From an uncultured Mycoplasmatota bacterium (GTDB lineage: Bacteria; Bacillota_I; Bacilli_A; RF39; UBA660): a stretch of DNA of 62,896 bases. The notes beneath the pieces are model-generated. The model did no database searches. It saw nothing but the letters and a program-made list of their open reading frames with translations, and was not told the DNA's origin. The stretch covers positions 1-62,896 of the forward strand of contig CAOJZZ010000003.1 of assembly GCA_948466315.1 (NCBI GenBank), given 5' to 3'. Position 1 is the stretch's first letter; each line of letters starts with the position of its first letter. Below are positions 8,402 through 54,688 of this stretch, piece by piece. Made by a program: the position numbers and the translations under genes.

Positions 8402-8608
8402 TTAAGCCTCATTTTTCTCAACTTTAATTAACCCCTCTGAAACTTCTTCAAGAGCCCTTCCTATATTTTTTTGGCTCTTATACGAGGCATCAGGCATTTG
8501 TAAATATCCATCTTTAGCAATCTCTTTACTTCTTCTAGCTGAAATATGAACCAACTCATATTTAGAATCAACTATATTAAGCAATTTATCAATAGAAGGA
8601 TAAATCAT
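8402..8608 (-). CDS. rpoZ: RNA polymerase omega subunit
   Basis: MIYPSIDKLLNIVDSKYELVHISARRSKEI...ALEEV. Confidence 0.93.
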   Translation of the reverse strand: MIYPSIDKLLNIVDSKYELVHISARRSKEIAKDGYLQMPDASYKSQKNIGRALEEVSEGLIKVEKNEA

Positions 8609-8749: not shown

Positions 8750-8881
8750 TTATCTAAATTGGCAACAAGAACCACATTGAACATTACTTACAGTATTTTC
8801 CTCAGAACAAGAATATTCAGGTCTATATGTATGTTTATAAATATGATGATTAATTATTCTTGTATGAATAGGACAAACATG
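8750..8881 (-). CDS. cotD: 3' half of interrupted CotD-like spore coat gene (HVCPIHTRIINHHIYKHTYRPEYSCSEENTVSNVQCGSCCQFR*)
   Basis: No start codon or RBS of its own; His/Cys-rich; continues the 17868-18074 ORF in frame when joined at CA; resembles B. subtilis CotD (VPHIHPQHTTNVNHQHFQHVHYFP). Confidence 0.85.
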   Translation of the reverse strand, partial: HVCPIHTRIINHHIYKHTYRPEYSCSEENTVSNVQCGSCCQFR

Positions 8882-8904
8882 TGTGTGCCCTTTTTTGATA
8901 GACT
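8857..8904 (-). repeat. attR-like junction (element arm AGTCTATCAAAAAAGGGCACACA, core CA at 8880-8881, cotD 3' arm)
   Basis: The 19-bp sequence tgcccttttttgatagact (8886-8904) recurs at 13739-13757; it starts 2 bp past the recombinase stop codon. Confidence 0.85.
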
Positions 8905-8906
8905 TT

Positions 8907-10469
8907 TTATTTACTAAAAGAAATCTTTATATTTATAGTTTTATCTTCAAATATTTCAATTCTATCAATTAAATTGATTATTAACTCTCTACTAGGTTCT
9001 TTCATGGATAAAAATTTATTAATATACTCGTTAATCATTTTATTTTTAGATTCTTCATTAATGTTATCATTAATACTATTATTTAACTCACTATATCTTT
9101 TTTGTTTTATATTTAGTTCATTTTCTAATTTTACTCTTACTCTTTCAAATTGTTCTTCAGTTATTTTCTTATTTAACTTATCAATATAAATAATATCTAA
9201 ATTATCATTTATTTGCTTAATGTCGTTAGTTAGTCTTTCTAACTCTTTTTTATTATTTAATTTATTATCTTCAGTTAAATTATTTAATACATTATTTTTA
9301 ATTTTATCTTTATTAATATAATTTAAGCAGATATTAGTTAATGAATTGATTATAACTTTCTCTAATTCATCATAGTTATTAGAATGAGTTGTACAAAGTT
9401 TTTGTTTCATATAAGTCCTATAATAATTGCAAATTGTATAACATCTATTATCTTTTTTTCTTCTGGATTGTATGGATATTCGATGTCCACAATTACCACA
9501 ATATAATAACCCATCTAATAAATGAATCTCTTTTTTTTCATTTCGCCCCTTATTTTTAGGCATTCTTTTTTGAACTTCATAAAATATTCCTTTATCTATA
9601 ATTGCTTCATGAGTATTTTCTACAACTATATAATCATTGGGATTATTTTTAATCACTTTTTTCACTTTATAATTAACTTTACTTCTTCTATTTTGTACCA
9701 TATCACCAATATACATTCTATTAGTTAAAATATCTCTTATGGTTTTTGAATGCCACTCTCCATATTTTAAATTGTAGTTATTTTTCCATTCAAAGTTATA
9801 GTATTGTGCTGGGGTTTTTATTCCTTCATTTGTAAGTTGTTTGGCTATTTTAAAGAATGATAAACCTTCTAAACACATATCAAATATTCTTTTAACAACA
9901 ATTGCTTGTTCTGGATTTATTACTAAATGATTTTTATTATCTTTATCTTGATCATATCCAAACGGAGTTCTTCCTCCAACCCATTTTCCTTCTTTCATTT
10001 TTGCTTTTAAACTAGATTTTATTTTTTTAGATATATCTTTAGCATACATATCATTCATAATAGCTTTAAATGGTGCAATGTCATTATTAGAATTATCTAA
10101 AAATGTATCTATATTATCAGTAACAGCTATATATCTAACATTATGTTCTGGAAAATACTTTTCGATTAAATTACCAGTACCAATATAATCTCTTCCAAGT
10201 CTTGACATATCCTTAGTAATAACCATATTTATTTTACCTAATTCAATATCAGTTAATAATCTATTAAAATCAGGTCTTTCAAAATTTGTTCCACTATATC
10301 CATCATCAATATAAATATCATATACTCTTAAATTATTTTCTTTAACATATTGAAGTAATAAGCTCTTTTGATTTGTAATACTCTCACTTTCTAAAGTTTT
10401 ATCATCATCTTCCCTAGATAATCTTATATAAAGTCCAACATTATATATCTTATTTAAACTCTCTAACAA
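8907..10469 (-). CDS. Large serine recombinase (module A)
   Basis: YIRLSRED catalytic Ser motif, DDGYSGTNFERP, KDMSRLGR, recombinase domain, LLYCGNCG zinc ribbon, coiled coil. Confidence 0.97.
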   Translation of the reverse strand: MLESLNKIYNVGLYIRLSREDDDKTLESESITNQKSLLLQYVKENNLRVYDIYIDDGYSGTNFERPDFNRLLTDIELGKINMVITKDMSRLGRDYIGTGNLIEKYFPEHNVRYIAVTDNIDTFLDNSNNDIAPFKAIMNDMYAKDISKKIKSSLKAKMKEGKWVGGRTPFGYDQDKDNKNHLVINPEQAIVVKRIFDMCLEGLSFFKIAKQLTNEGIKTPAQYYNFEWKNNYNLKYGEWHSKTIRDILTNRMYIGDMVQNRRSKVNYKVKKVIKNNPNDYIVVENTHEAIIDKGIFYEVQKRMPKNKGRNEKKEIHLLDGLLYCGNCGHRISIQSRRKKDNRCYTICNYYRTYMKQKLCTTHSNNYDELEKVIINSLTNICLNYINKDKIKNNVLNNLTEDNKLNNKKELERLTNDIKQINDNLDIIYIDKLNKKITEEQFERVRVKLENELNIKQKRYSELNNSINDNINEESKNKMINEYINKFLSMKEPSRELIINLIDRIEIFEDKTINIKISFSK

Positions 10470-10639
10470 TTCTTACCTCCTTCTAGAGATAAATAAGCAC
10501 ATGATGATGGTACCTCAAATTTTTTATTCTTACAAATTATTTGGATATATTTTTTAAGTTCCTTACTTAAAACTTTTATAAAAATATCATTTATATCATT
10601 ATTTTCATTATAGATATAATTAATTCTGTAATTATCCAT
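10463..10639 (-). CDS. Small protein coupled to recombinase A (MDNYRINYIY...), candidate directionality factor
   Basis: RBS GAGGTG; overlaps the recombinase start; homologous ORF at 15943-16107. Confidence 0.7.
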   Translation of the reverse strand: MDNYRINYIYNENNDINDIFIKVLSKELKKYIQIICKNKKFEVPSSCAYLSLEGGKNC

Positions 10640-10673
10640 AAATTTTGTACACCTCATTTAAACTTATGGATAA
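10632..10673. repeat. 10-bp inverted repeat TTATCCATAA/TTATGGATAA spanning the RBS and start codon of the small ORF
   Basis: Arms at 10632-10641 and 10664-10673; same arms at 16100-16140. Confidence 0.8.
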
Positions 10674-11096
10674 ATCACTAGTTTTAGTAATACTAAATCG
10701 TATAATATTTAAATTACACACATATTTAGTATTACTTATAAGCATTCGCTCTCTTTCTAATTATCATAAACATCATCTCCTTTTTGCATGATGCATGATA
10801 CCTCCACTAAGAAATTGAGTCAAGTCATAAAGTATAGAAAGTTTTATCTATCATCCTAAAAATATTCATAATTTAATAAATTATAAAACAGCAGGATAAG
10901 AAAATTGTGTATCAATACATAGTTTTCCTTTTAAAATAAAGAAAACTATATACACAATTCTTATTTCGTACTTACAAAATTCATCCTACTATGTAGGATG
11001 GTATTAAGGAAATACCCTTATTTTATAATAATTTATGCCATAAAAAAACATCCTAAAATTCTTAAATTAATAAAATTTATAGGATGATTAAATTTT

Positions 11097-12005
11097 TTAC
11101 TTAATATTTTTAACACTATCAAATGATGATATATAATCACTTACCCAATTATCAACAACAGACTCATCAATATGCAAATTACCTTGTCCAGTACCTAAGT
11201 TATGATTTATTTTTCTAGTTCCATGAAAATCACTACCTCCACTCATATACAGTTTTCTATCGTTACAAACACTTACTAAATAATCAGATTGTTCTTTTGT
11301 AAAAGTTGTATAAAAACACTCCAATCCATCTAATTCATAATTATTTATTATATTTAATAACTCATTTGCTATATTAGGAGAATAAGCAAAAGTATGTGCT
11401 AAAAAGGCAAGTCCTCCTGAATTATGTATCATTTGTATTGCTGTTTCTAAGCTAGGAAACAATGATGATTCATCAACATATAATGGACTTTTAGGATTAT
11501 ATACTTCATTCCTAGTAAATCCACTAGCTGTATTTATCGATTCTTGATTTAAGAAAAATTTATAATTTTCAGGATGTTTTTTTATTTCAATAGCAAATGC
11601 TGGTCTACAAGATTCAACTTTTGGATCAAATTTAATATTATTTTCATCAAATATTACTCCTATGGCATTATACCTATTTTTTATTAGATCATATTCTTTT
11701 ATTTGTTTTTGTTCAAATGAAAGTACATTAGCATCTAAAAATTTCTGCATAGTTTCTAAATCAAAACCATAACCTAATACCTCTATTGTTTCTCCCTTGT
11801 AAGTTGTAGTTATTTCAATTCCTGATATTATTTCTCCTTTAAACCTATATCTTATATTAGAATTTTGTAATTCAAAATGAGCTTGTATTGTATTATGATC
11901 AGTTATTGAAAGCAAACTCAAATTTAATTTTTGTGCTTCACTTAAAAGTTCATCTACACTAGAACTTCCATCAGAATATGTAGTATGTGAATGAATATCT
12001 ACCAT
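11097..12005 (-). CDS. PHP-domain phosphoesterase
   Basis: DIHSHTTYSDG, TDHN, GIEI, LAH, GGSDFHG metal-binding motifs. Confidence 0.92.
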   Translation of the reverse strand: MVDIHSHTTYSDGSSSVDELLSEAQKLNLSLLSITDHNTIQAHFELQNSNIRYRFKGEIISGIEITTTYKGETIEVLGYGFDLETMQKFLDANVLSFEQKQIKEYDLIKNRYNAIGVIFDENNIKFDPKVESCRPAFAIEIKKHPENYKFFLNQESINTASGFTRNEVYNPKSPLYVDESSLFPSLETAIQMIHNSGGLAFLAHTFAYSPNIANELLNIINNYELDGLECFYTTFTKEQSDYLVSVCNDRKLYMSGGSDFHGTRKINHNLGTGQGNLHIDESVVDNWVSDYISSFDSVKNIK

Positions 12006-12032
12006 GTATAAAACCTCCTTAAAATTAATATC

Positions 12033-12776
12033 TTATTGTATTTCAAAATTTAATAATTCCTCACAAATCTTTTCATATAAGTCTTGTTCATGTTTAATAG
12101 TATCAATTAAAAACATTTTATCATTTTCATATTCTTTTAAACCTCTCATATAATAAGGTTTATCATCATCTAATACAATAAATGGCATAATATTATTTCT
12201 TAAGCATTCTTTAAACATAATAATTCTTCCAACCCTGCCATTTCCATCTCCAAAGGGATGAATTTTCTCAAATTTATAATGAAAATCAATAATATCTTCT
12301 AAAGTAATATTAGTTTTTGCATTATATTCAAAAACTAATTTATCAATTTCTTTTTCTACATCTTCTGGTGCAGTTGTATTAATAACATTAACAAGACCTA
12401 TCATATTAGGAACTATTTTAAATCCTCCAACATTATATCTAGGATTTTCTTCATCACTAGTATTTCTTTTTAATATCTTATTCATTTTGATAATCATTTC
12501 TTTAGATAACTTATTATCAACATTATCTAACATATAATCAAATAATTTAAAATGATTCTTAGATTCAGTTAAATCATCTAATTTTATCAAATCATCACTC
12601 TTAGGAATAAAAGATGAAGTATCAAATATGGCTTCAGTCTGATCACTGGTTAACCTGCTACCTTCTATCTTATTTGAATTATAGGAAAAATTAACTTGTG
12701 AATAATGATATATATTTCCTTTAAACTTTGATTCTTTTTGGCTAATTAATTCTCCTTTTATTTTAGTTATATTCAT
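12033..12776 (-). CDS. Fic-domain protein
   Basis: HPFGDGNGRVGR active-site motif; N-terminal SNKIEG inhibitory motif (class II Fic). Confidence 0.93.
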   Translation of the reverse strand: MNITKIKGELISQKESKFKGNIYHYSQVNFSYNSNKIEGSRLTSDQTEAIFDTSSFIPKSDDLIKLDDLTESKNHFKLFDYMLDNVDNKLSKEMIIKMNKILKRNTSDEENPRYNVGGFKIVPNMIGLVNVINTTAPEDVEKEIDKLVFEYNAKTNITLEDIIDFHYKFEKIHPFGDGNGRVGRIIMFKECLRNNIMPFIVLDDDKPYYMRGLKEYENDKMFLIDTIKHEQDLYEKICEELLNFEIQ

Positions 12777-12801
12777 TAATCTTACATCCTTTCATTATTT
12801 A

Positions 12802-13626
12802 CTAATCATTATTTATATTTTTCATATACTCATATACCATATTTTTATAATCCAAAATAAATTTATTTTTTATTCTTTCTTCAACACAATCTAAATCTAA
12901 ATAGGGAGCTATATCTTCAATCTCTGTCAAAAGAAGTGTTCCATCCTTAAGTTTAATAAAGTCAATTCTTTGAATACCATAATAATTTTCATTTAATTTA
13001 GAAAATTCATCTGCTAATTTCATTTCATTTTCATTTGGTTCATATTTTATTGCATCGGGATAAATTGGAACTTTACTTGGAATAAACTCTAGTGCATATT
13101 CGAATTTATCTTTTATATAATAAAATTGTACCTCAGATTGAAATTCCATATATGGTTGAATTACATATGAATCAGTAAAGTTTTTTTCTAATTGTTGTTT
13201 GTCTACTACCATTTGTCCTATTCCATCATAACTATCTTTAAGCTTTAATAAAATTTTATTACATTTATCTAGTATTTGTAAATCTTCAATATTATCGACA
13301 GTTGGAATGACGGGATAGCCATTTTTATATAAACGAACAAGATATTCTTTGCTCTTTCCATCATATTTACCATCAAAATTAATACGTGGGAGATTTTTAT
13401 TAATGATTCTTAGTCGAAAATTAGATTTCTCTTTAATGGTTTCTATATTCGCATCAGTATCCCAAGTATTCCTTAACAAAAAAACATCAAATAAAGATTC
13501 AAGTTTTTCATCATAATTCTTATCAACTATCGCTACCTTATGACCATCTTTTTGAAAAGCTCTAGCAAGCCATATATCTTCTAATTTTTCATCTGCATCT
13601 ATATTACTAATCATTAAAATATTCAT
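12802..13626 (-). CDS. ATP-grasp fold (RimK/glutathione synthase-like) protein
   Basis: KEYLVRL..GYPVIPT, LKLKDSYDGIG, YVIQPYM, RIDFI, LLTEIEDIAPYL. Start refined to ATG 13626. Confidence 0.7.
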   Translation of the reverse strand: MNILMISNIDADEKLEDIWLARAFQKDGHKVAIVDKNYDEKLESLFDVFLLRNTWDTDANIETIKEKSNFRLRIINKNLPRINFDGKYDGKSKEYLVRLYKNGYPVIPTVDNIEDLQILDKCNKILLKLKDSYDGIGQMVVDKQQLEKNFTDSYVIQPYMEFQSEVQFYYIKDKFEYALEFIPSKVPIYPDAIKYEPNENEMKLADEFSKLNENYYGIQRIDFIKLKDGTLLLTEIEDIAPYLDLDCVEERIKNKFILDYKNMVYEYMKNINND

Positions 13627-13709
13627 AAGTATCACCTTCTATTTCATTATATCACACAAAAAGACATTTAAATGCCTTTAAATTTGTACTTATTCTCTCT
13701 TTAAAACTT

Positions 13710-13757
13710 AGTCTGTCATAAATTATCACACTTGTCCTTGCCCTTTTTTGATAGACT
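13710..13757 (-). repeat. Internal attP-like junction between modules A and B (AGTCTATCAAAAAAGGGCAAGGA-CA-AGTGTGATAATTTATGACAGACT)
   Basis: 48 bp with 23-bp arms around CA at 13733-13734; 4 mismatches to the attP reconstructed from the outer ends. Confidence 0.85.
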
Positions 13758-14077
13758 AAATTTCTATTATTCCATTTACTATATCAATAATTTCTTCTAA
13801 TTCATCTTCACATAGTTTTTCAACAAACGATAATTTTCTTACTTTAAAATCTACACTTCTAACATATTCACATAAAAATGAACCTTTTATTTTTTTAGTA
13901 TTTAAAAATTAAGAATTTTTTTGTATTTGTAGTTATAGGACATATTACAACTAGTCCTGTGTATTTGTTATAATTATCTTTACTAATAACTACTGCTGGT
14001 CTTAGTCCTGTTTGTTCATAACCAATTGTTGGTGCAAAATTCATATAACAAATATCTTATTGTTTTGGTAGATACAT
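13756..14077 (-). pseudogene. mazF: MazF/PemK toxin pseudogene
   Basis: MYLPKQ*DICYMNFAPTIGYEQTGLRPAVVIS...VVICPITT, then a frame break before GSFLCEYVRSVDFKVRK; premature TAA at codon 7. Confidence 0.88.
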
Positions 14078-14336
14078 TAATAAAACTTTTCCTTTCCTAA
14101 GTCTTCTCCCCAATCAAAAGCCTCAATACTACCTTTTTCTTCATCAGGTAATTTATTAAATTCTTCAAATCTTTCTTCTAATGTTTTATGTTTTATAGTT
14201 TGTTTTGATATTATAATTTTATCATTCTCTTGTATTAAATCTACTTTATCATTTGTCTTTAAATTAAGCGATTTTAAAATGCTACTTGGATTCTAATTCC
14301 ATCAGAATTTCCCCATTTTTGAAGTCTTGCTTCCAC
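14077..14336 (-). pseudogene. mazE: AbrB/MazE antitoxin pseudogene
   Basis: MEARLQKWGNSDGIRI followed by a 1-nt deletion; the shifted frame continues SSILKSLNLKTNDKV...FDWGEDLGKE; its stop overlaps the mazF ATG. Confidence 0.85.
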
Positions 14337-14402
14337 AATATCATATCAATTCATTCATAGTATATACAAAGTTTATACATTCGCCCTATTATTATATCCA
14401 AC

Positions 14403-15956
14403 TTAACCAAAACTTACTTTAATATTAACAGTTTTATCTTCAAATATTTCTATTCTATCAATTAAGTTAATTATTAATTCTCTACTAGGTTCTTTCATAG
14501 ACAAGAATTTATCAATATACTCTATTATAATTTTATTTTTTGATTGCTCACTTATAGTATCATTAATGTTATTATTTAACTCATTATATCTTTTTTGTTT
14601 TATGCTTAGTTCCCGCTCTAATTTTAATTTCACTCTCTCAAATTGGTCTTCGGTTATCCTTTTATTTAATTTATCAATGTAAATAGCATCTAAATTATCA
14701 CTTATTTGTTTAATATCAGTAATTAATATTTCTAACTCTTTTTTATCATTAACCTTATTAACTTCATCTAAATTATTTAATACATTATTTTCGATTTTAT
14801 CTTTATCAATATATTTAAGGCACATCTCAACTAAAGAATTAATTATAGATTTCTCTAACTTATCATAATTATTAGAATGAGTACTACACTTTTTTTCTTT
14901 CATATAAGTTCTATAATAATTACAAATTGTATAGCACCTATTATCTTTTTTCCTTCTCGCAAGAACAGATATTCTATGTCCACAGTCACCACAATATAAC
15001 AGTCCATCTAATAAATGATTCTCTTTTTTAGTACTTCTTCCTACATTTTTAGGTATTCGCTTCTGTACTTGATAAAATGTATCTTTATCAATAATAGCCT
15101 CATGTGTATTTGAAACTATTATATAATCACTTTCTTTATTTTTAACAACTTTTTTTACCTTATAATTTACTTTACTCCTCTTATTTTGAACCATATCTCC
15201 TATATATATTCTATTAGTTAAAATATCTCTTATCGTTTTAGCATTCCATTCTCCATATTTTAAATTATATTTTTTCTTCCATAAAAAACTATAATATTGA
15301 GCTGGTGTTTTAACACCTTCATTAGTTAGAATTCTTGCTATTTTAAAAAATGACAAACCCTTCAAACACATATCAAATATTCTTTTAACAACAATAGCTT
15401 GATTCTTATTTATAACTAAATAATTCTTATCATTCTTATCTTGTCTATATCCAAACGGTGCTCTACCCCCTACCCATTTTCCACACTTTTGTTTTGCTCT
15501 CAAACTAGATTTAATCTTTTTTGATATATCCTTAGCATACATATCATTCATTATTGCCTTAAAAGGTGCTATATCGTTATTAGAACTATCCAAAAACGTA
15601 TCAATATTATCAGTAACCGCTATATATCTAACATTATTCTCTGGAAAATACCTTTCAATTAAATTACCTGTGCCAATATAATCTCTACCAAGCCTAGACA
15701 TATCTTTAGTAATAACCATATTAACTCTACCTAATTCTATATCTTTTAATAGTTTATTAAAACCAGGTCTATCAAAATTAGTTCCTGAATAGCCATCATC
15801 TATATAAATATCATAAACATCTAAATTATTCTCTTTTACATACTGTAGTAATAAACTCTTCTGATTAATAATACTCTCACTCATAGACCCTTTATCATCA
15901 TCCTCACGAGATAATCTTATATAAACACCAACACTATATTTTTTATTTAAAAACAC
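14403..15956 (-). CDS. Large serine recombinase (module B), close paralogue of 8907-10469
   Basis: YIRLSRED, DDGYSGTNFDRP, LLYCGDCG; long identical stretches shared with recombinase A. Confidence 0.97.
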   Translation of the reverse strand: MFLNKKYSVGVYIRLSREDDDKGSMSESIINQKSLLLQYVKENNLDVYDIYIDDGYSGTNFDRPGFNKLLKDIELGRVNMVITKDMSRLGRDYIGTGNLIERYFPENNVRYIAVTDNIDTFLDSSNNDIAPFKAIMNDMYAKDISKKIKSSLRAKQKCGKWVGGRAPFGYRQDKNDKNYLVINKNQAIVVKRIFDMCLKGLSFFKIARILTNEGVKTPAQYYSFLWKKKYNLKYGEWNAKTIRDILTNRIYIGDMVQNKRSKVNYKVKKVVKNKESDYIIVSNTHEAIIDKDTFYQVQKRIPKNVGRSTKKENHLLDGLLYCGDCGHRISVLARRKKDNRCYTICNYYRTYMKEKKCSTHSNNYDKLEKSIINSLVEMCLKYIDKDKIENNVLNNLDEVNKVNDKKELEILITDIKQISDNLDAIYIDKLNKRITEDQFERVKLKLERELSIKQKRYNELNNNINDTISEQSKNKIIIEYIDKFLSMKEPSRELIINLIDRIEIFEDKTVNIKVSFG

Positions 15957-16107
15957 GTTTATCTCCTTCTAAAGATAACAAAAATCTATTCTTTTCCTTA
16001 CTAATCATATCAATATATACACTAATTTCTTTTTTTAAAACCTTAATAAAAATATCATTTATATCCTCCTTACCATTAAATATATAAGTAATTTTATAAT
16101 TATCCAT
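15943..16107 (-). CDS. 54-aa protein coupled to recombinase B (MDNYKITYIFNGKEDINDIFIKVLKKEI...), candidate directionality factor
   Basis: Manual translation; AGGAG RBS; homologous to 10463-10639; absent from the ORF track. Confidence 0.7.
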   Translation of the reverse strand: MDNYKITYIFNGKEDINDIFIKVLKKEISVYIDMISKEKNRFLLSLEGDKRVFK

Positions 16108-16140
16108 AAATTCAAACTCCTTATTTAACTTTATGGATAA
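16100..16140. repeat. Inverted repeat TTATCCATAAA/TTTATGGATAA over the RBS and start codon of small ORF B
   Basis: 11-bp arms; the loop sequence differs from the module A copy. Confidence 0.8.
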
Positions 16141-16230
16141 AATCCCAGTTTTATAATTTAAATTACTAAAAAATAATAAATATTTATATTAATCATTCTC
16201 ATATAATTCACATACTCATTAAAAATAATA

Positions 16231-16752
16231 CTACTTCCTAGTATGTCCTATTTTACCCTCTAAAAGATAATTATCCAAACTAAAGTTATCATCTACTCTT
16301 CCAAATGAATTTAAATAATTCTTAAAAGAATCATTATTAACTTCTACTACACCACTAGTAAGTAAATTAGATAAAAGATTCCTATCTATTTTATCCCCAG
16401 GCCATTCCACTAATTTTACAAGATTACTATTATCTTTCCTCACAAACTGGGAAAAACTCGGATTAATTAATAATCTCTTCATATTAGAATTAGTCATATA
16501 CTCAGCTATCAAAATAGTATGATCAACATACACTAAATCATTCAAATCTATTTTATAAGTATGAACCCCAGAAATATCTTGAACTATTCTATATTCTATT
16601 TGATTAGCCAAATATTTACAAAAGCCATCAAATTCCAAAACCTTATCAGCTAACTTTTCCCTCTCATCAAAAACTATTGCTTTTATATCTGCTTCTTTGT
16701 CCTTGCCTTCAATATTTAATATAGAATTATAAAAATCATATAAACTATTCAT
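16231..16752 (-). CDS. Hypothetical protein with a possible Cys-His-Asn/Asp (papain/transglutaminase-like) arrangement
   Basis: GFCKY ... DHTILI ... LINPSFSQF spacing. Confidence 0.4.
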   Translation of the reverse strand: MNSLYDFYNSILNIEGKDKEADIKAIVFDEREKLADKVLEFDGFCKYLANQIEYRIVQDISGVHTYKIDLNDLVYVDHTILIAEYMTNSNMKRLLINPSFSQFVRKDNSNLVKLVEWPGDKIDRNLLSNLLTSGVVEVNNDSFKNYLNSFGRVDDNFSLDNYLLEGKIGHTRK

Positions 16753-16880
16753 ATAATCACCATAATTATTATATCTTAAAAATACATTTTTTATCTATAT
16801 ATAAAATTTATTCTTATTTATCTTAATTTAGTTTACAAATAATTATCGTTTAACTAATTATTATAATTACTAAAAACCAC

Positions 16881-16909
16881 TTGAATTAATAAAAAAATAA
16901 AGTTATAAT
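16881..16909 (+). promoter_or_regulatory. sigA-type promoter of gmk
   Basis: TTGAAT-17-TATAAT, 22 bp upstream of the ATG; AAGGAG RBS. Confidence 0.65.
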
Positions 16910-16931
16910 TATCAACACAAAGGAGAATATT

Positions 16932-17624
16932 ATGGGAAATATTAAACAAAAAACTAGAGGAGACTTAATTATCATTTCAGGTACCACTTGTGCAGGTAAA
17001 GGTACCATCATTAGAAAACTTTTAAAAAAACATAATAATATTAAATTATCAATCTCTTATACTTCAAGGGCTATGCGTGAAGGAGATATTGATGGAGTAG
17101 ATTATTATTTTATTTCCAGAGAAGAGTTTGAAGAAAAAATCAAAAATAAAGATTTTTTAGAATATGCTACTGTACATGGTGAATATTATGGTACACCAAA
17201 AAAAGAAATTGAAAACATATTAGAAACTGGTACTGATGTCATACTAGAAATCGAAGTACAAGGGGCTAAACAAATCAAGGAAATGTTTCCTGAAACAATT
17301 TTAATCTTTATATTGGCACCTTCATTTGAAGAAGTAAAAAGAAGAATAAAAGCTCGTGGTGTAGAAAACAACGAACAAATAATCAAAAGATTTAAATCAG
17401 CCTATCAAGAAATAAATGAAATACCAAAGTATAACTATGTAGTCGTTAATGATGAAATTGATAATGCTTTATTAAAAATCGAATCTATTCTAATAGCTCA
17501 AAAATGCCGAGTAGACAGAATTGAGGAGATTGCTGTTGAAAATGAAGAAGAACTATTACATGAGTTTATTATGGATAAAGAATTTGATAATACTCCGATA
17601 AATTATAATAAGGATACCAATTAG
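16932..17624 (+). CDS. gmk: Guanylate kinase
   Basis: SGTTCAGKGT P-loop variant, SISYTSRAMREGDIDGVDYYF, YYGTP, ILEIEVQGA, YNYVVVND. Confidence 0.95.
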   Translation: MGNIKQKTRGDLIIISGTTCAGKGTIIRKLLKKHNNIKLSISYTSRAMREGDIDGVDYYFISREEFEEKIKNKDFLEYATVHGEYYGTPKKEIENILETGTDVILEIEVQGAKQIKEMFPETILIFILAPSFEEVKRRIKARGVENNEQIIKRFKSAYQEINEIPKYNYVVVNDEIDNALLKIESILIAQKCRVDRIEEIAVENEEELLHEFIMDKEFDNTPINYNKDTN

Positions 17625-17842
17625 TACCCTTATTTTTATTAGTCAAGTATGTCCTAAATCTATATAAATGATAGCCTATCATAATTTTAAGACTCATCAT
17701 TTTTTTAATATTATTCATTAATTTCAAAACTTAATAGTTTTTTACAAGTTAATTCAAACCAATCATGTTCATTCTTTATAATTTAAAAAATCTAATACTT
17801 CTTATCAAAATGACTTTAGTTTGATTTTCTCTTTCTATATTT

Positions 17843-17890
17843 AGTCTATCATAAATTATCACACTTGTGGAACTTCATGTACGAAAGTTC
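17843..17890 (-). repeat. attL-like junction (cotD 5' arm, core CA at 17866-17867, element arm AGTGTGATAATTTATGATAGACT)
   Basis: The arm matches 13710-13732 with 1 mismatch and ends in TGATAGACT, the inverse of AGTCTATCA at the other end. Confidence 0.85.
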
Positions 17891-18074
17891 TGTGAATACA
17901 TTTTTCTTGAACACCTTCATTTATTGAGTTAGAAAAATTCCCACCTTGCATCATCTGTTCCCCACTATAATTCATCATATTAATATCAACATTCATATCA
18001 TTTTCTACAACATTATTGTTACCCATAACAGAAGAATCAAAATCAAAATTTTGAGCCATATTTTGATCAAACAT
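17859..18074 (-). CDS. cotD: 5' half of interrupted CotD-like spore coat gene (ends ...CIHRTFVHEVP, then element-derived QV*)
   Basis: AGGAGG RBS; EKCIHRTFVHEVP aligns with CotD CEHHTFSKTIVP; the element arm supplies TGA TAA. Confidence 0.85.
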   Translation of the reverse strand: MFDQNMAQNFDFDSSVMGNNNVVENDMNVDINMMNYSGEQMMQGGNFSNSINEGVQEKCIHRTFVHEVPQV

Positions 18075-18096
18075 AATCTAATTACCTCCTCTATTC

Positions 18097-18105
18097 TATA
18101 GTATG
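18097..18105 (-). promoter_or_regulatory. Putative mother-cell (sigE/sigK-type) -10 element CATACTATA upstream of cotD
   Basis: Matches CATA-NNN-TA; no convincing -35 found. Confidence 0.4.
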
Positions 18106-18148
18106 TAAAAACTAATTTTTAGCTACTATGAAGGCCCAAATAAACCAA

Positions 18149-19456
18149 TTAGAAAGGTAATTTCATATTACCATTAGATACCTGCTTCATCATCTTTTTC
18201 ATCTGATCAAATTGTTGCAGTAACTTATTAACCTCTTGTACAGAAGTACCACTACCAAGAGCAATTCTTGTCTTTCTACTTGCTTTAATAATATCAGGAT
18301 TTCTTCTCTCTTTAGGTGTCATAGATAAAACAATAGCCTCAATATGTGCCATCTGCTTTGGATCTATTTTTACATTAGTAAGTCCCATCTTTTTAGCTCC
18401 AGGAATCATTTTAATCAAATTCTCAAGTGGTCCTAACTTTTTCATTTGCTTTAAAGTAGATAAAAAATCTTCTAAATCAAACTTACCCTGTTGCATTTTC
18501 TTAGCCGACTTCATAGCCTCTTTTTCATCAATTACCTCAGTTGCCTTTTCAACAAGTGATACAATATCACCCATTCCCAAAATTCTTCCAGCCATTCTTT
18601 CAGGATCAAACAAATCAAGTCCATCCATTTTTTCAGAAGTTCCCATAAACTTAATTGGAACATTAGTTAAATGTCTAACAGATAAAGCCACTCCACCTCT
18701 AGTATCGCCATCTAATTTAGTAAGAACTACACCAGTAAGCGGTAATTTATCATTAAAACCTGTAATAACATTGATGGCATCCTGACCCATCATAGAATCA
18801 ATTACTAATAATATTTCCATAGGATTAATAGTATCTTTAATTGATACTAATTCATCCATTAGCTCCTCATCAATATGTAATCTACCAGCTGTATCAATTA
18901 AAACATAATCATATTTATTTTCTTTAGCATACGAAATAGCATGTACAACTATATCTACAGGATTAGCCTTACCTTCTTCATAAACTTCAATATTTAGCTG
19001 TTTACCAAGTTGTTTTAACTGATCTATTGCCGCTGGACGATAAACATCACAAGCTACTAACAAAGGCTTTTTATTGTGTTTTTTTCTCAAAAAACTAGCC
19101 AATTTAGCAATAGTCGTAGTTTTTCCAGAACCTTGTAAACCAACAAGCATTAAAGTAGCAGGACTACCACTAATATTCAAAGGAGCACTCTCTCCACCCA
19201 ACAGATTGGTAAGTTCATCATGAACTATTTTAACAAATAAATCTCCTGGATTAATGCTACTAGCAACTTCTTCTCCTAAAGCTTTCTCCTTAACTATAGT
19301 AGTAAATTCCTTAACCACTTTATAATTAACATCAGCCTCCAACAAAGCCAAACGAATCTCACGCATCATCTCAGAAATATTATCTTCTGTAATTTTTCCA
19401 TAACCTTTAATTTTGTGAAGCGCATTTTGTAAACGATCTCCCAAATTTTCAAACAT
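18149..19456 (-). CDS. ffh: Signal recognition particle protein
   Basis: GLQGSGKTT, DTAGR, TKLDGD, M domain. Start refined to ATG 19456. Confidence 0.98.
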   Translation of the reverse strand: MFENLGDRLQNALHKIKGYGKITEDNISEMMREIRLALLEADVNYKVVKEFTTIVKEKALGEEVASSINPGDLFVKIVHDELTNLLGGESAPLNISGSPATLMLVGLQGSGKTTTIAKLASFLRKKHNKKPLLVACDVYRPAAIDQLKQLGKQLNIEVYEEGKANPVDIVVHAISYAKENKYDYVLIDTAGRLHIDEELMDELVSIKDTINPMEILLVIDSMMGQDAINVITGFNDKLPLTGVVLTKLDGDTRGGVALSVRHLTNVPIKFMGTSEKMDGLDLFDPERMAGRILGMGDIVSLVEKATEVIDEKEAMKSAKKMQQGKFDLEDFLSTLKQMKKLGPLENLIKMIPGAKKMGLTNVKIDPKQMAHIEAIVLSMTPKERRNPDIIKASRKTRIALGSGTSVQEVNKLLQQFDQMKKMMKQVSNGNMKLPF

Positions 19457-19544
19457 TAATATCACTCCTAAACCAATTATAACGAAAAAAAAATAACAAG
19501 TAAATAAAAAACAGCACCTAAAAGATGCTATAATTTATAAAATA

Positions 19545-21779
19545 TTAACTAGTAACATCATCCAAAGATAAAGATGGAATAGAAGAAGACTCATTACTAT
19601 CACCTAATGGAACCATCTCAGGAATTCCTTGTCCTGCTACAGCATTAGTCTCAACTCCAACATTACTTACAACTTGCTGAGGCACTACTGGCTCAGGAGA
19701 AGTAGTCAAAGGAGCTGAACTGCTTATAGAAGATAAAGTAGCACTTGATGAATCCACTACATCCACTAACTTACTTTCTGTACTAGAAACAGAAGCTGAC
19801 GTATCTACACTAGAAGATTCTTCTTTCAAAGAAACATCACTAGGTATAACAAAAGAAGAATCAAAACTTTCAGACTTTTCATCACCAAACGCCATACTAG
19901 GCTCAATATTCATCTCTGGAATAGCATTTTGCGGCATTACCATATCAGCAGATGAATTAACTGAAGCAGTAGTAACCATACTATTATTATTAATTTCTGG
20001 AGAAACTCCATTATTATTAGACATAGTATTACCATTCCAAATAGTAACAACATCACAGTTACTACTCCAAGGAGCCGGATCAGGCATTTGCATCTTAACA
20101 ATTATTGGTATTCTAAATCCCATTCCAAAGCCTAAACAAGTTCCTGCTTGTAAGGTTTTCTGCTTCTCAACAATTTCATCACTAATATTTGGAACCATTT
20201 TTCGAATATATTCAACATCAACAGGGTGATTCATTTTAAATATCAAAAAATTAGAACATTGAGAGATAACTGTATCAGAAAGCTCAACAGGCCTTTGCGA
20301 AATAAGTCCTAATATAACTCCATATTTACGACCTTCCTTCGCTATTCTTTCAAATATATTATAACCAATTAAAAATCTATCTGTATCATTTTGAATATAT
20401 CTATGTGCCTCCTCAACAATTATATGAAAAGGAATACTCGCCCTATCTTTTAAGGCTTTAGCAAATTCAAAAACAAGTCTCGAGAAAATCTTCGTAATAA
20501 CTTTAGCAAAATCATCATCAACATCATCCAAATTAATATTAACAATTTGATATTTTTGCCCATTATTAATTAACATAGAAGACAAATAACTCTCCAAAGA
20601 AACATAATCTGGAACATCAAAAAATTTTGCATTGTTACCAACAATTAAAGCATGCAATCTAACACGAATAGTAACTGCATCACCATAAGTGTTCTCATTA
20701 CGTAACCATCCCTCACTAATTAAAGTAAAGTTCAAAGCTTTTTCCAATGTATCTAAAGTATAATAAACTCCACCTTGAGGCTCATAATCATCATACTCAC
20801 TATTAATAAATGAAGAAACATACTCAGTAAGTAAAACACTCTCTGCAAATTGTCCATCATTATTAATTAAGAATAATTCTCTAAACTTTCTAGTATAACC
20901 AATACCCTGTACAGGCGCTTCTAAATTAAACTCCGCTGTAGAACAACTAGCTAAAATAGAAAACACTTCATTTCTCTTATTAGGAGATGTTTCATTAGTA
21001 TAAAGAATTGTCATAATAGCTTTAGCAATCAAATGATTTTTATAATTATTAGCGTCCATATCATCCTGAGAAAAAATAAGTGCTAATTTTAACATTCTCT
21101 CAATAATAGGTAACTGTGAATGGTTAGTTGCTTGCAACAGTAATGCTAAATCTGTATAATTCAATAAAAATATAGGTAAACGTAACTTTTCTCCAATACC
21201 ATCAGCTTCATTAGTACTATAAAAACGATAATGATAATTTGGATTAATAGAATTAAGATTTTTAAAAGCATTGTAATATTCACCAGAAGAGTCAAAAAGC
21301 AAAATATTAGCTTTATAAGGAAACAATCTCTGATCATTAAACATATTTTGGAACAATCTAGAAATACCACAACTTTTACCAGAACCACTATTACCAAATA
21401 TAGCAAAATGATTACTAAAGAAACTATTAACGTCTAAAAAAACAGGATGATCATTATAGAAAGGACTAACACCTAACTGCATAAATCCTCTCTCATTTCT
21501 ACCAGTAACCATTGGTATTTCTTCTTTTTCAATAACTCTAATATGAGCATCTAAAGATGGCTTACGAATTGTTCCACCAATTAATCTACCATTAACTATT
21601 TCTCCTAAAAATCTAGCCTTAACAATATTACCATCTAAATCATCAACTTCACCCAAAACCTTTTTAGTATCATCCTCAAATATCAAATGTAAATTCATCA
21701 AATTAATAACAACATCCGTATCATCTTTTAATTTTATACTAGCAGAATGATCACTAATATAAGTAATTCTATCAAACAT
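19545..21779 (-). CDS. HerA/DUF87-type ATPase with long Ser/Val/Pro-rich C-terminal tail
   Basis: HAS-barrel-like N-terminus, GNSGSGKS Walker A, IVEEAHRY Walker B, KEGRKYG, SQRP. Confidence 0.85.
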   Translation of the reverse strand: MFDRITYISDHSASIKLKDDTDVVINLMNLHLIFEDDTKKVLGEVDDLDGNIVKARFLGEIVNGRLIGGTIRKPSLDAHIRVIEKEEIPMVTGRNERGFMQLGVSPFYNDHPVFLDVNSFFSNHFAIFGNSGSGKSCGISRLFQNMFNDQRLFPYKANILLFDSSGEYYNAFKNLNSINPNYHYRFYSTNEADGIGEKLRLPIFLLNYTDLALLLQATNHSQLPIIERMLKLALIFSQDDMDANNYKNHLIAKAIMTILYTNETSPNKRNEVFSILASCSTAEFNLEAPVQGIGYTRKFRELFLINNDGQFAESVLLTEYVSSFINSEYDDYEPQGGVYYTLDTLEKALNFTLISEGWLRNENTYGDAVTIRVRLHALIVGNNAKFFDVPDYVSLESYLSSMLINNGQKYQIVNINLDDVDDDFAKVITKIFSRLVFEFAKALKDRASIPFHIIVEEAHRYIQNDTDRFLIGYNIFERIAKEGRKYGVILGLISQRPVELSDTVISQCSNFLIFKMNHPVDVEYIRKMVPNISDEIVEKQKTLQAGTCLGFGMGFRIPIIVKMQMPDPAPWSSNCDVVTIWNGNTMSNNNGVSPEINNNSMVTTASVNSSADMVMPQNAIPEMNIEPSMAFGDEKSESFDSSFVIPSDVSLKEESSSVDTSASVSSTESKLVDVVDSSSATLSSISSSAPLTTSPEPVVPQQVVSNVGVETNAVAGQGIPEMVPLGDSNESSSIPSLSLDDVTS

Positions 21780-53494: not shown

Positions 53495-54688
53495 TTAACG
53501 CCCTTCACAAATCCTATAAGTATCTCTAGCAATCATTAACTCCTCATCAGTTGCTACAACATATGCAGGAATAGCAGATTCATCAGTAGTTATAATACCC
53601 TCAACACCTTTACGTACAATAGTTCTTTTATTTCTCTCATCATCTAATATAATACCAAGTGGATAGAGTTTTTTAATTATCTCTTTACGAATAATATCAT
53701 CATTTTCACCACCACCTGCTGTAAAGCAAATAGCATCTATCATTCCACCTAATTTTACGTAATATTTCGCAATATAATCAACAATTCTATTTACATACAT
53801 CTCTATAGCAAGCATTGCCTTTGATTCATTAGCTTCATACGCACGATCAACATCACGTAAATCACTCATTCCAGCAATTCCCTCTAAACCACTAGAATTA
53901 TTTAATTCATCATCTAATAATTCTAAATACTTTCCTTCTTTTTGAGCAATATATTTTAAAATAGAATAATCAATATCCCCAGAACGTGTTCCCATCATAA
54001 CACCTGCATTAGGAGTAAATCCCATAGAAGTATCAATTGATTTGCCACCTTTAACAGCCGTTATAGAAACACCACTCCCAATATGACAAATAATTAAGTT
54101 AGGTCTTTTACCAAGAATATCTGTCATTTTTTCTGTAATAAACTTATGACTAAGCCCATGAAAACCATATTTACGAACATGATGTTTCACATACCATTCA
54201 TAAGGCACAGAATACAAATAAGTTGCCTCATCCATTGTCTGATGAAAAGCCGTATCAAAACAAGCTACCATTCTAGCATTTGGAATATTCTCTAAAAATG
54301 AGTAAATTCCTTTCAATGCTGCAGGATTATGTAAAGGAGCCAAAGGAGACATCGCATCTATCTCTGTCAACACCCTTCTTGTAATTTCTACACTTTTAGA
54401 ATATTTATTCCCACCATGAACAACTCTATGACCAACGGCCTCAATTTCAGATAAAGAATTTACAATTCCTCTTTCTATAAATAATTGAAGTAAAATTTTT
54501 ACAGCCACATCATGATCTTTTAATGGTATCAAAGAACTAATTTTCTCATTACCAATACGAATACTATATCCCGAATCATCCAAACCAATACGCTCAAATG
54601 CACCTTTAACAATAAGAGTTTCTTCTGGCATCTCATACAATCTAAACTTCAATGTACTACTACCAGCATTAACAGATAACAATTTCAT
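53495..54688 (-). CDS. ackA: Acetate/short-chain acyl kinase (copy 2)
   Basis: VNAGSSTLK, GHRVVHGG, APLHNP, YGFHGLSH, TDEELMIA. Confidence 0.93.
   Translation of the reverse strand: MKLLSVNAGSSTLKFRLYEMPEETLIVKGAFERIGLDDSGYSIRIGNEKISSLIPLKDHDVAVKILLQLFIERGIVNSLSEIEAVGHRVVHGGNKYSKSVEITRRVLTEIDAMSPLAPLHNPAALKGIYSFLENIPNARMVACFDTAFHQTMDEATYLYSVPYEWYVKHHVRKYGFHGLSHKFITEKMTDILGKRPNLIICHIGSGVSITAVKGGKSIDTSMGFTPNAGVMMGTRSGDIDYSILKYIAQKEGKYLELLDDELNNSSGLEGIAGMSDLRDVDRAYEANESKAMLAIEMYVNRIVDYIAKYYVKLGGMIDAICFTAGGGENDDIIRKEIIKKLYPLGIILDDERNKRTIVRKGVEGIITTDESAIPAYVVATDEELMIARDTYRICEGR

Follow-up and report, generated by a model that had tools for sequence, protein, structure and literature searches.

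Elements that interrupt sporulation genes are usually viewed as tolerated parasites or as timing switches, with dispensable cargo. Why, then, would such an element carry a gene for guanylate kinase (gmk)? This question is raised by a 62,896-nucleotide stretch of DNA (the window) from an uncultured bacterium of the RF39-type Bacilli. The window is AT-rich (25% GC) and is an entire contig (C3) of a metagenome-assembled genome (MAG; GCA_948466315.1), which has 1.5 Mb in 79 contigs, an estimated completeness of 71%, and an estimated contamination of 3.5%. The smallest contig kept in the MAG is 4.9 kb. Within the window, an insert of 8,986 bp splits a short, weakly CotD-like gene, which we call X, and carries gmk near one end. 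A first-pass annotation of the window had proposed that gmk, as an essential gene and if present in one copy, locks this element into the chromosome. Our preferred explanation, to which we assign a probability of about 60%, is that a small gene-intervening element of non-phage type has taken on a housekeeping gmk as cargo. A lock seems unlikely to us.

The insert splits gene X

The features that define the insert and its gmk are as follows.

8402–8608, minus strand: rpoZ, outside the element (TIGR00690, 49.6 bits)
8750–8881, minus strand: 3' part of X, including the stop codon
8880–8881: attR core, CA on the minus strand
16881–16909, plus strand: sigma-A-type promoter-like site of gmk (TTGAAT, 17 nt, TATAAT), followed by an AAGGAG ribosome-binding site
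16932–17624, plus strand: gmk, guanylate kinase, 230 amino acids (PF00625, TIGR03263)
17607–17634: terminator-like hairpin around the gmk stop codon, kept in all compared gmk loci
17866–17867: attL crossover core, TG on the plus strand and CA on the minus strand, with the element's P arm to its left (about 17840–17865)
17866–18074, minus strand: 5' part of X (CotD-like); the open reading frame (ORF) as it stands has 71 amino acids and spans 17859–18074
18149–19465, minus strand: ffh, outside the element

The 71-amino-acid ORF ends in ...VHEVPQV before its stop codon, and an orphan frame at about 8750–8890 runs on as ...HVCPIHTRIINHH...CCQFR to its own stop. When we joined the two halves of X in silico at the CA core, we obtained a 112-amino-acid ORF that contains ...VHEVPHVCPIHTR.... 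The restored junction reads CCACATGTTTGTCC, which is identical to the intact genes of relatives, and the 14-mer is the same as well. The predicted attB, formed by joining the two flanks, reads ...GAAGTTCCACA up to the crossover and TGTTTGTCC... beyond it. The restored X aligns end to end with intact relatives of 105–116 amino acids (at most 83% identity), and every invariant column is satisfied. The insertion point is at codon ~70. In relatives, the uninterrupted locus is ffh-X-rpoZ-recX, with no insert. Comparison with the CotD family (PF11122) gave sub-threshold matches for 18/20 members of the X family (best E = 0.002, below the gathering score).

The first-pass annotation had placed gmk about 220 bp inside attL. 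It does lie just inside, and we measured 242 bp from the gmk stop codon to the core. As also annotated, rpoZ is just outside the other end, starting (at 8608) 272 bp from the attR core. The further claim that rpoZ is the operon partner of gmk did not hold up: gmk is adjacent to rpoZ in other families of this class, not in the host's family, where the native order is murG, tmcAL-gmk-113aa, and pyk (see below). Because the ancestral order at the insertion site is ffh-X-rpoZ-recX, the nearness of gmk and rpoZ is a coincidence of the insertion site and not a disrupted operon. We therefore rejected the idea that the insertion displaced gmk from rpoZ.

We also examined X across the 201 sampled genomes (201 genera) of the host's RF39-type Bacilli family; all family-wide counts below refer to this sample. 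In about 27 of these genomes, X is matched in two separate pieces, and several of the breaks are at residue ~70.

At three of the split X genes (G171, contig C12; G041, contig C1; G080, contig C35; loci L232–L234), we read inserts of 3.7–6 kb. Their recombinases are 74–92% identical to rec1, one of the two recombinases in the window's insert, and their cargo varies (a Fic protein, a 277-amino-acid protein). None of these three inserts contains gmk, which is elsewhere in those genomes.

The element encodes a guanylate kinase with conserved motifs

The protein appears to be a working, housekeeping-type guanylate kinase (Gmk). It scores 173.6 bits against PF00625 (cut-off of 25.2) and 232.6 bits against TIGR03263 (cut-off of 160.45), with profile positions 2–180 covered. 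Like canonical Gmk, it aligns end to end over the catalytic length with the S. aureus structures (4QRH and 2J41), and it has the GMP-binding and lid motifs. Specifically, we looked for a Walker A motif of the form GxxxxGK[ST], the patterns S..T.R..R.GE..G..Y.F and E.A...G..YGT, and the lid arginines, and found all of them. The Walker A motif is GTTCAGKGT, the GMP-binding blocks are SISYTSRAMREGDIDGVDYYF and EYATVHGEYYGTP, and the lid is RRIKARG; each aligns to S. aureus Gmk. The protein also keeps the EIEVQGA motif.

The window's Gmk differs from canonical Gmk in its Walker A motif, which is GPSGxGKGT in the canonical proteins, and in an acidic C-terminal extension of ~35 amino acids. Both are traits of the whole RF39-type clade. 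Also, unlike in the canonical comparison, the gene is not adjacent to rpoZ. The first-pass annotation had read the P-loop correctly and had called it atypical. Within the clade it is the norm: of the 120 closest homologues, 104 share GTTCAGKGT, which marks the motif as a trait of the lineage rather than an oddity of the window's gene. Judging from these sequences, the variant P-loop is under selection as a clade trait.

The first-pass annotation had also given gmk its own sigma-A promoter. In this AT-rich DNA, promoter-like sites are not above chance, but this one is kept in the homologous loci: the TTG of the -35 element, the -10 element, and the ribosome-binding site are shared by element-borne and chromosomal copies. 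In two samples (L049 and L050), there is an insertion-sequence-like repeat at 16852, which is 80 nt 5' of the gmk start and leaves the promoter intact. The repeat ends of these variants also form the ends of host contigs C27 and C61.

The ratio of nonsynonymous to synonymous divergence (dN/dS) between the window's gmk and the other element-borne copies is 0.05–0.09, with dS of about 1. By this measure, the constraint on element-borne gmk is no weaker than among chromosomal copies. We considered a role in defence and rejected it, as the sole hint from PADLOC was a weak match to VakA at the level of the P-loop (E = 1.8e-5).

gmk is a recurrent cargo of this element family

The Gmk proteins most similar to the window's are encoded on three short contigs from other samples (L230, L231, and L045). 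In L230, whose Gmk is 83% identical to the window's, we found a recombinase, a 44-amino-acid ORF, gmk, the same P arm and core, and a 5' fragment of X. From the small ORF on, L231 matches this order; the contig, of 1,093 bp, ends in that ORF, and no recombinase is seen. In L045 (91% identity), the order is recombinase, small ORF, gmk, PHP, and Fic. Thus, gmk lies directly against the same junction in L230 and L231, and it is the sole cargo of these minimal elements. The presence of gmk as element cargo in contigs from other species is a new result of this analysis.

In a maximum-likelihood tree, the element-borne copies form a clade. The window's gmk groups with L045 (support of 100/99), and the group that also includes P0002 and P0003 has support of 99/96. 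The element-borne clade is nested (98/97) among gmk genes from a chromosomal locus, YuzI-237aa-gmk-DUF8436, of a more distant lineage. We checked this context for P0004, P0005, and P0008, and it is free of recombinases. We rejected this locus as the host's ancestral gmk site, because closer relatives have gmk in the order murG, tmcAL-gmk, pyk. The host's orthologues of the genes that flank gmk at the YuzI locus are on contigs C9 and C2, without gmk.

The similarity of Gmk does not track that of other proteins. In the closest genera, which are also closest by X, MraY is 84–90% identical and MurG is 61–73% identical, but Gmk is just 51–67% identical to the window's. In G109 (MraY 70%, MurG 54%), Gmk is 78% identical, and in the host of L044 (MraY 72%), it is 80% identical. 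To the question of whether this gmk is native or a xenologue, which the first-pass annotation had hoped that a phylogeny would settle, the answer is therefore mixed: it is native to the family but is probably foreign to this lineage. The tree suggests that an element captured a gmk cassette native to the family once and that inheritance or spread followed, and the conserved signals imply that the promoter and the terminator were captured along with the gene. Selection has probably retained the gene for a long time, and it probably reached this lineage horizontally. An old and recurrent cargo under strong purifying selection is what a retained and needed gene would look like.

These comparisons suggest that a core gene of nucleotide metabolism is a stable and selected cargo of an intervening element in several lineages, and they make the movement of housekeeping genes between the reduced genomes of gut Bacilli testable.

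The insert is made of two stacked recombinase modules

The insert comprises module A (8882–13734) and module B (13735–17865), each with a large serine recombinase. Module B is ~4.1 kb on its own and the two together are ~9 kb. Besides gmk, the insert contains the following features.

8907–10469, minus strand: rec1, large serine recombinase of module A, 520 amino acids
10463–10657: small ORF preceding rec1, a homologue of the 54-amino-acid ORF of module B
11097–12005, minus strand: PHP-domain protein, cargo of module A
12033–12776, minus strand: Fic protein, cargo of module A (PADLOC PDC-S04, 329 bits)
12802–13635, minus strand: 277-amino-acid protein, cargo of module A
13733–13734: core, between P and P', of the internal attP-like site that separates the modules
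13895–14044, minus strand: truncated PemK/MazF-like fragment of 49 amino acids, module B (PF02452 on identical ORFs in L056 and L060)
14403–15956, minus strand: rec2, large serine recombinase of module B, 517 amino acids (Resolvase, Recombinase, and Zn_ribbon_recom domains)
15943–16107, minus strand: 54-amino-acid ORF that overlaps the rec2 start, candidate directionality factor
16231–16752, minus strand: 173-amino-acid ORF, module B

Module B thus has the order PemK-like fragment, rec2, small ORF, 173-amino-acid ORF, and gmk. Neither recombinase is truncated: each has its three domains, all above the cut-offs, and the two are 82% identical to each other. The best NCBIfam matches of rec2 are CcrC, XisF, and CcrB, all far below cut-off. 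Homologues of the 54-amino-acid ORF precede rec1 and the recombinases of L045, L230, L231, L233, and L234, and an ORF of 44–64 amino acids is conserved ahead of every recombinase that we examined in this element family. This small ORF had no match to a known family in NCBIfam or PADLOC. The 173-amino-acid ORF had no match in Pfam, NCBIfam, or PADLOC, and it is absent from the minimal elements L230 and L231. The PemK-like fragment has no partner gene, so it is not part of an intact toxin-antitoxin pair. We found no intact toxin with an adjacent antitoxin in the element, and this fragment is its sole toxin-like gene. The match of the Fic protein to a candidate defence family makes module A look like an element with defence cargo that is stacked on a gmk-bearing one.

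Contigs from other samples show that the insert varies within the species. In L056 and L060, which contain module B only, the module is joined to X exactly at the internal core. Module A is present in some populations of the species, and module B is present in every examined contig that reaches the junction. Because module A is present or absent exactly at the core, site-specific recombination has acted in this species. An identical Gmk is found on at least 21 contigs of other samples, and all six of the places shown have gmk, the 5' part of X, and ffh. An identical RpoZ is found on at least 22 contigs, with the element junction in 7 of the 10 places shown. The first-pass annotation's starting point, an intact gmk inside an element bounded by recombinase sites, is thus borne out by the profile scores, by the split X, and by the same junction in independent contigs.

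One contig (L058, from SRR22050017) ends at 8883, which is the last base common to attR and the predicted attB. This end would fit, weakly, a minority of excised chromosomes or a branch in the assembly graph between the two forms.

The host appears to form endospores

By gene content, the host is an endospore former. The window encodes SpoIVA with all three domains as well as an alpha/beta-type small acid-soluble spore protein. We ran profile searches for sporulation proteins against 41 genomes, including the host MAG, and found Spo0A_C in 40/41 and SpoIVA in 36/41. Spo0A (Spo0A_C) was not found in the host MAG, which is 71% complete. The order RF39 is predicted to sporulate (PMC10868615), and the relatives Ca. 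Faecisoma and Ca. Coprovivens have been placed in this order (PMC8035907). This gene content makes excision in the mother cell, of the type known for skin, SPbeta, and gin, plausible. The description of the target as a gene in a spore former is supported, and its CotD-like character weakly so.

gmk is often missing in this family

The first-pass annotation took gmk to be generally essential. This is doubtful in this lineage: PF00625 has a match over the cut-off in 112 of the 201 genera and none in the other 89 (~44%), and several of the assemblies that lack gmk have just 3–10 contigs. The high proportion of genera without gmk weakens the premise of essentiality. We considered whether the gmk-less MAGs are merely missing an element-borne gmk that was not binned, and we rejected this. 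Among the genomes with a split X, roughly 15 have gmk and 12 do not, so there is no enrichment for the absence of gmk, and the inserts in G171, G041, and G080 lack gmk. Two full-length copies are found in just 2/201 genomes (G085 and G096). Across the family, gmk is found in about ten neighbourhoods and as at least two deep sequence types. The gene is strikingly fluid in this family.

Is the element's gmk the only copy in the host?

The host assembly has a single match to PF00625, as the first-pass annotation's condition of a sole copy would require. In 8/10 of the closest genera, gmk lies ~1.3–2.5 kb from murG. The native order is murG followed by tmcAL (PF05636), gmk, and a gene of ~110 amino acids (113aa) in G108, G021, G141, and G171, and pyk then follows in G108, G021, and G141. 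In G108, the closest sequenced genus, X is intact and gmk occupies this native chromosomal locus. This answers where gmk lies in a relative with an uninterrupted X.

In the host, this locus falls exactly into an assembly gap. Contig C31 ends 77 nt upstream of murG, and contig C18 starts 65 nt downstream of pyk, within a repeat that is found at six contig ends. The tmcAL, gmk, and 113-amino-acid genes of the native block are all missing from the MAG (71% complete). The repeat family, whose terminus is ...CTTGACAAAGAACC, ends contigs C18 (positions 1–54), C6, C8, C13, C24, and C71. Short solo copies with this terminus are in C69 and C21, and one copy abuts pyk. A look-up of the neighbouring Fpg protein returned 10 contigs; three of these (L240, L242, and L244) reach past pyk, and all three stop at the same repeat boundary. 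A look-up of MurG for contigs that bridge murG and pyk gave no exact record. Because three further assemblies stop at the repeat beside pyk, the locus is rearranged in this species. We think that a native gmk is unlikely to survive in the host. The element's gmk would then be the sole copy.

Explanations for gmk in the element

Our preferred explanation begins with a family of large-serine-recombinase elements that sits at a fixed site (codon ~70) of the CotD-like gene X in many genera of this RF39-type family. In one lineage, the element may have acquired gmk from the chromosome of a family member, as a free-standing cassette with its promoter and the hairpin at its stop codon. The cassette, beside the element's right arm, would have been inherited or have spread with the element. 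If the element behaves as skin, SPbeta, and gin do, then recombination at the CA cores would most likely remove the entire insert from the mother cell during sporulation. Excision would restore the coat-like gene, and the germ line would keep the element, so that the housekeeping gene would be safe there. Any "lock" would be a consequence of losing the native copy, rather than a demonstrated adaptation. Several points weigh against this explanation. Neither the assembled contigs nor the protein collection showed us an excision product, a circle junction, or, for this species, an intact X. The CotD assignment of X draws on the sub-threshold Pfam matches. The discordance between Gmk and the marker proteins involves a few proteins and is not a comparison to a species tree. 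Horizontal transfer and long vertical inheritance are inseparable here, because the other three element-borne copies are on contigs of at most 1.8 kb. Finally, because the native block would fall in the gap that separates C31 from C18, a second copy of gmk is conceivable.

The lock proposed by the first-pass annotation would go further: the element would hold the sole, indispensable gmk, excision in a vegetative cell or forespore would be lethal, and the element would be maintained by a kind of addiction without a toxin-antitoxin system. The single gmk in the assembly, the rarity of redundant copies in the family, and constraint that matches that of chromosomal copies over dS of ~1 all fit this idea, as does the status of gmk as the sole cargo in L230 and L231. 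Module B also persists in all of the junction-reaching contigs while module A varies, and the toxin-like content of the element is limited to the truncated fragment of 49 amino acids. However, ~44% of genera do without any gmk, including those with assemblies of 3–10 contigs; the native locus lies exactly in the assembly gap; and related elements at the same site in X persist without gmk in other genera. The last point implies that persistence needs no lock and that restricting excision to the mother cell suffices, as for skin. Overall, a lock seems unlikely. We would entertain, as a tentative and rather doubtful reading, that the element replaced the native gmk when tmcAL and gmk were lost at the rearranged murG-pyk locus. 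The element's copy would then be the sole gmk, the element would be stabilised by a captured housekeeping gene and not by toxin-antitoxin, and this dependence could spread to new hosts. It is also improbable, to a similar degree as the lock, that the native tmcAL-gmk-113aa block lies in the gap and that the element's gmk is a second, horizontally acquired copy, either a passenger or a modifier of the GTP pool. The gmk near murG (within ~2.5 kb) in 8/10 of the closest genera would lead us to expect a native copy, the end of C31 is not a repeat, so unique sequence must continue beyond it, and a block of 2.3 kb between two breaks would fall under the MAG's minimum contig size of 4.9 kb. On the other hand, a unique block of 2.3 kb would normally assemble onto C31, three further independent assemblies stop at the same repeat, which shows an insertion or rearrangement at the locus, two full-length copies are known from just 2/201 genomes, and the element's copy has been under long and strong purifying selection.

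The insert might instead be dead, with X a pseudogene and gmk a chromosomal gene in a fossil island that is no longer excised. This would explain why no intact X of this species (none above 83% identity) is found in a collection of 15 billion proteins and why no excision product was observed. We consider it quite improbable, since both recombinases are full length with three domains each, the halves of X keep all of the invariant residues, and joining them restores the consensus VPHVCP. Recombination exactly at the core has also added or removed module A, and the end of L058 at 8883 would fit, weakly, a minor attB branch. As for the possibility that misassembly joined gmk and the element to ffh and rpoZ, the general risk of chimeras in a MAG (with 3.5% contamination) is all that speaks for it, and its probability is negligible: the arrangements rec2-orf173-gmk-X5'-ffh and rpoZ-X3'-attR-PemK'-rec2 recur at 99.8–100% identity in independent contigs of the JGI, ENA, and Logan assemblies, which excludes misassembly.

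If the element's gmk is indeed the sole copy, then nature would here offer a case in which the relocation of a gene made an integrated element impossible to lose. This would be a route to persistence that differs from toxin-antitoxin addiction, with excision survivable just in the terminal mother cell.

Comparison to known intervening elements

The elements skin and SPbeta of B. subtilis and skinCd of C. difficile are prophage-derived and range from 14 to 134 kb, as compared to 4.1 kb (module B) or 9 kb (both modules) for the element in the window. No essential or housekeeping metabolic gene is known among their cargo. Like the window's element, they are serine-recombinase elements: skin splits sigK and uses SpoIVCA, and SPbeta splits spsM and uses SprA and SprB (PMC4191935, PMC5499854, PMC5025042). 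In all three cases, the germ line keeps the element and the terminal mother cell removes it, which rebuilds a sporulation gene (PMC4191935, PMC5499854, PMC5025042). For SPbeta and skinCd, directionality is controlled via a small factor under sporulation sigma factors (PMC5499854, PMC5025042, PMC4191935). Our literature searches turned up no description of an intervening element in a sporulation gene that carries gmk or, indeed, any essential gene.

The closest described anatomy is that of gin, a small, non-viral intervening element in gerE of Bacillus cereus ATCC10987, which encodes the serine recombinase GirC and the protein GirX (PMC5595907). Both gin and the window's element are small non-phage elements that split a short gene and can be composite. 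Each encodes a large serine recombinase together with a small protein (accessory in gin, a candidate for that role in the window), and in both, excision at a short core restores the ORF (in silico for the window). They differ in that excision of gin was demonstrated experimentally, its target is the mother-cell gene gerE, and no housekeeping gene has been described in it; here, excision is predicted, the target is CotD-like, and gmk is cargo. Tandem related elements that share one site and have an internal hybrid site are also known from the staphylococci, where SCC elements (with CcrAB or CcrC) stack at orfX (PMC5595907). Unlike orfX, the target in the window is a coding sequence that is restored on excision. 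Also, because the scores of rec2 against the Ccr families are far below their cut-offs, rec2 is not a Ccr. Another parallel is with chromids, such as those of Paracoccus aminophilus (PMC3925955), which share the concept of an element that cannot be lost once it holds the sole copy of a needed gene. Chromids are replicons and have no developmental excision, whereas the window's element is integrated and excisable, and the sole-copy condition would have to hold for the parallel to apply.

Other split genes and nearby features

The mother-cell gene spoIVA is in two pieces in 5/41 genomes (G005, G009, G010, G011, and G043), which suggests that it too is a recurrent target of an intervening element in this family. 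The break is at residue ~120–124, in the ATPase domain, and the breaks in these five relatives fall mostly at contig ends.

In the host itself, a gene similar to ftsW, rodA, or spoVE is apparently split. Its first ~331 residues are at 53772–54764 of contig C4 and its last ~30 residues are on contig C9 (within 17578–19332), where they adjoin a large serine recombinase (17755–19332). Relatives have an intact gene in that position. Beyond rec1 and rec2, the host has at least eight clear serine-recombinase paralogues (40–66% identity to the N-terminal domain). Contigs with further paralogues include C1, C4, C9, C22, C32, C41, C43, C51, and C52, and weaker ones are on C4 and C32. Thus, the RF39-type genomes, at ~1 Mb, seem to hold many recombinase elements that split sporulation genes: X (in ~27/201 genomes), spoIVA (in 5/41), and the ftsW/spoVE-like gene (in the host).

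Outside the insert, between ylxM and ffh, the window has one more gene of possible interest.

19545–21779: HerA-like ATPase, 744 amino acids, with a long serine-rich tail

This protein has strong matches to anti-phage HerA models. Since relatives have the gene at this position too, it does not belong to an island.

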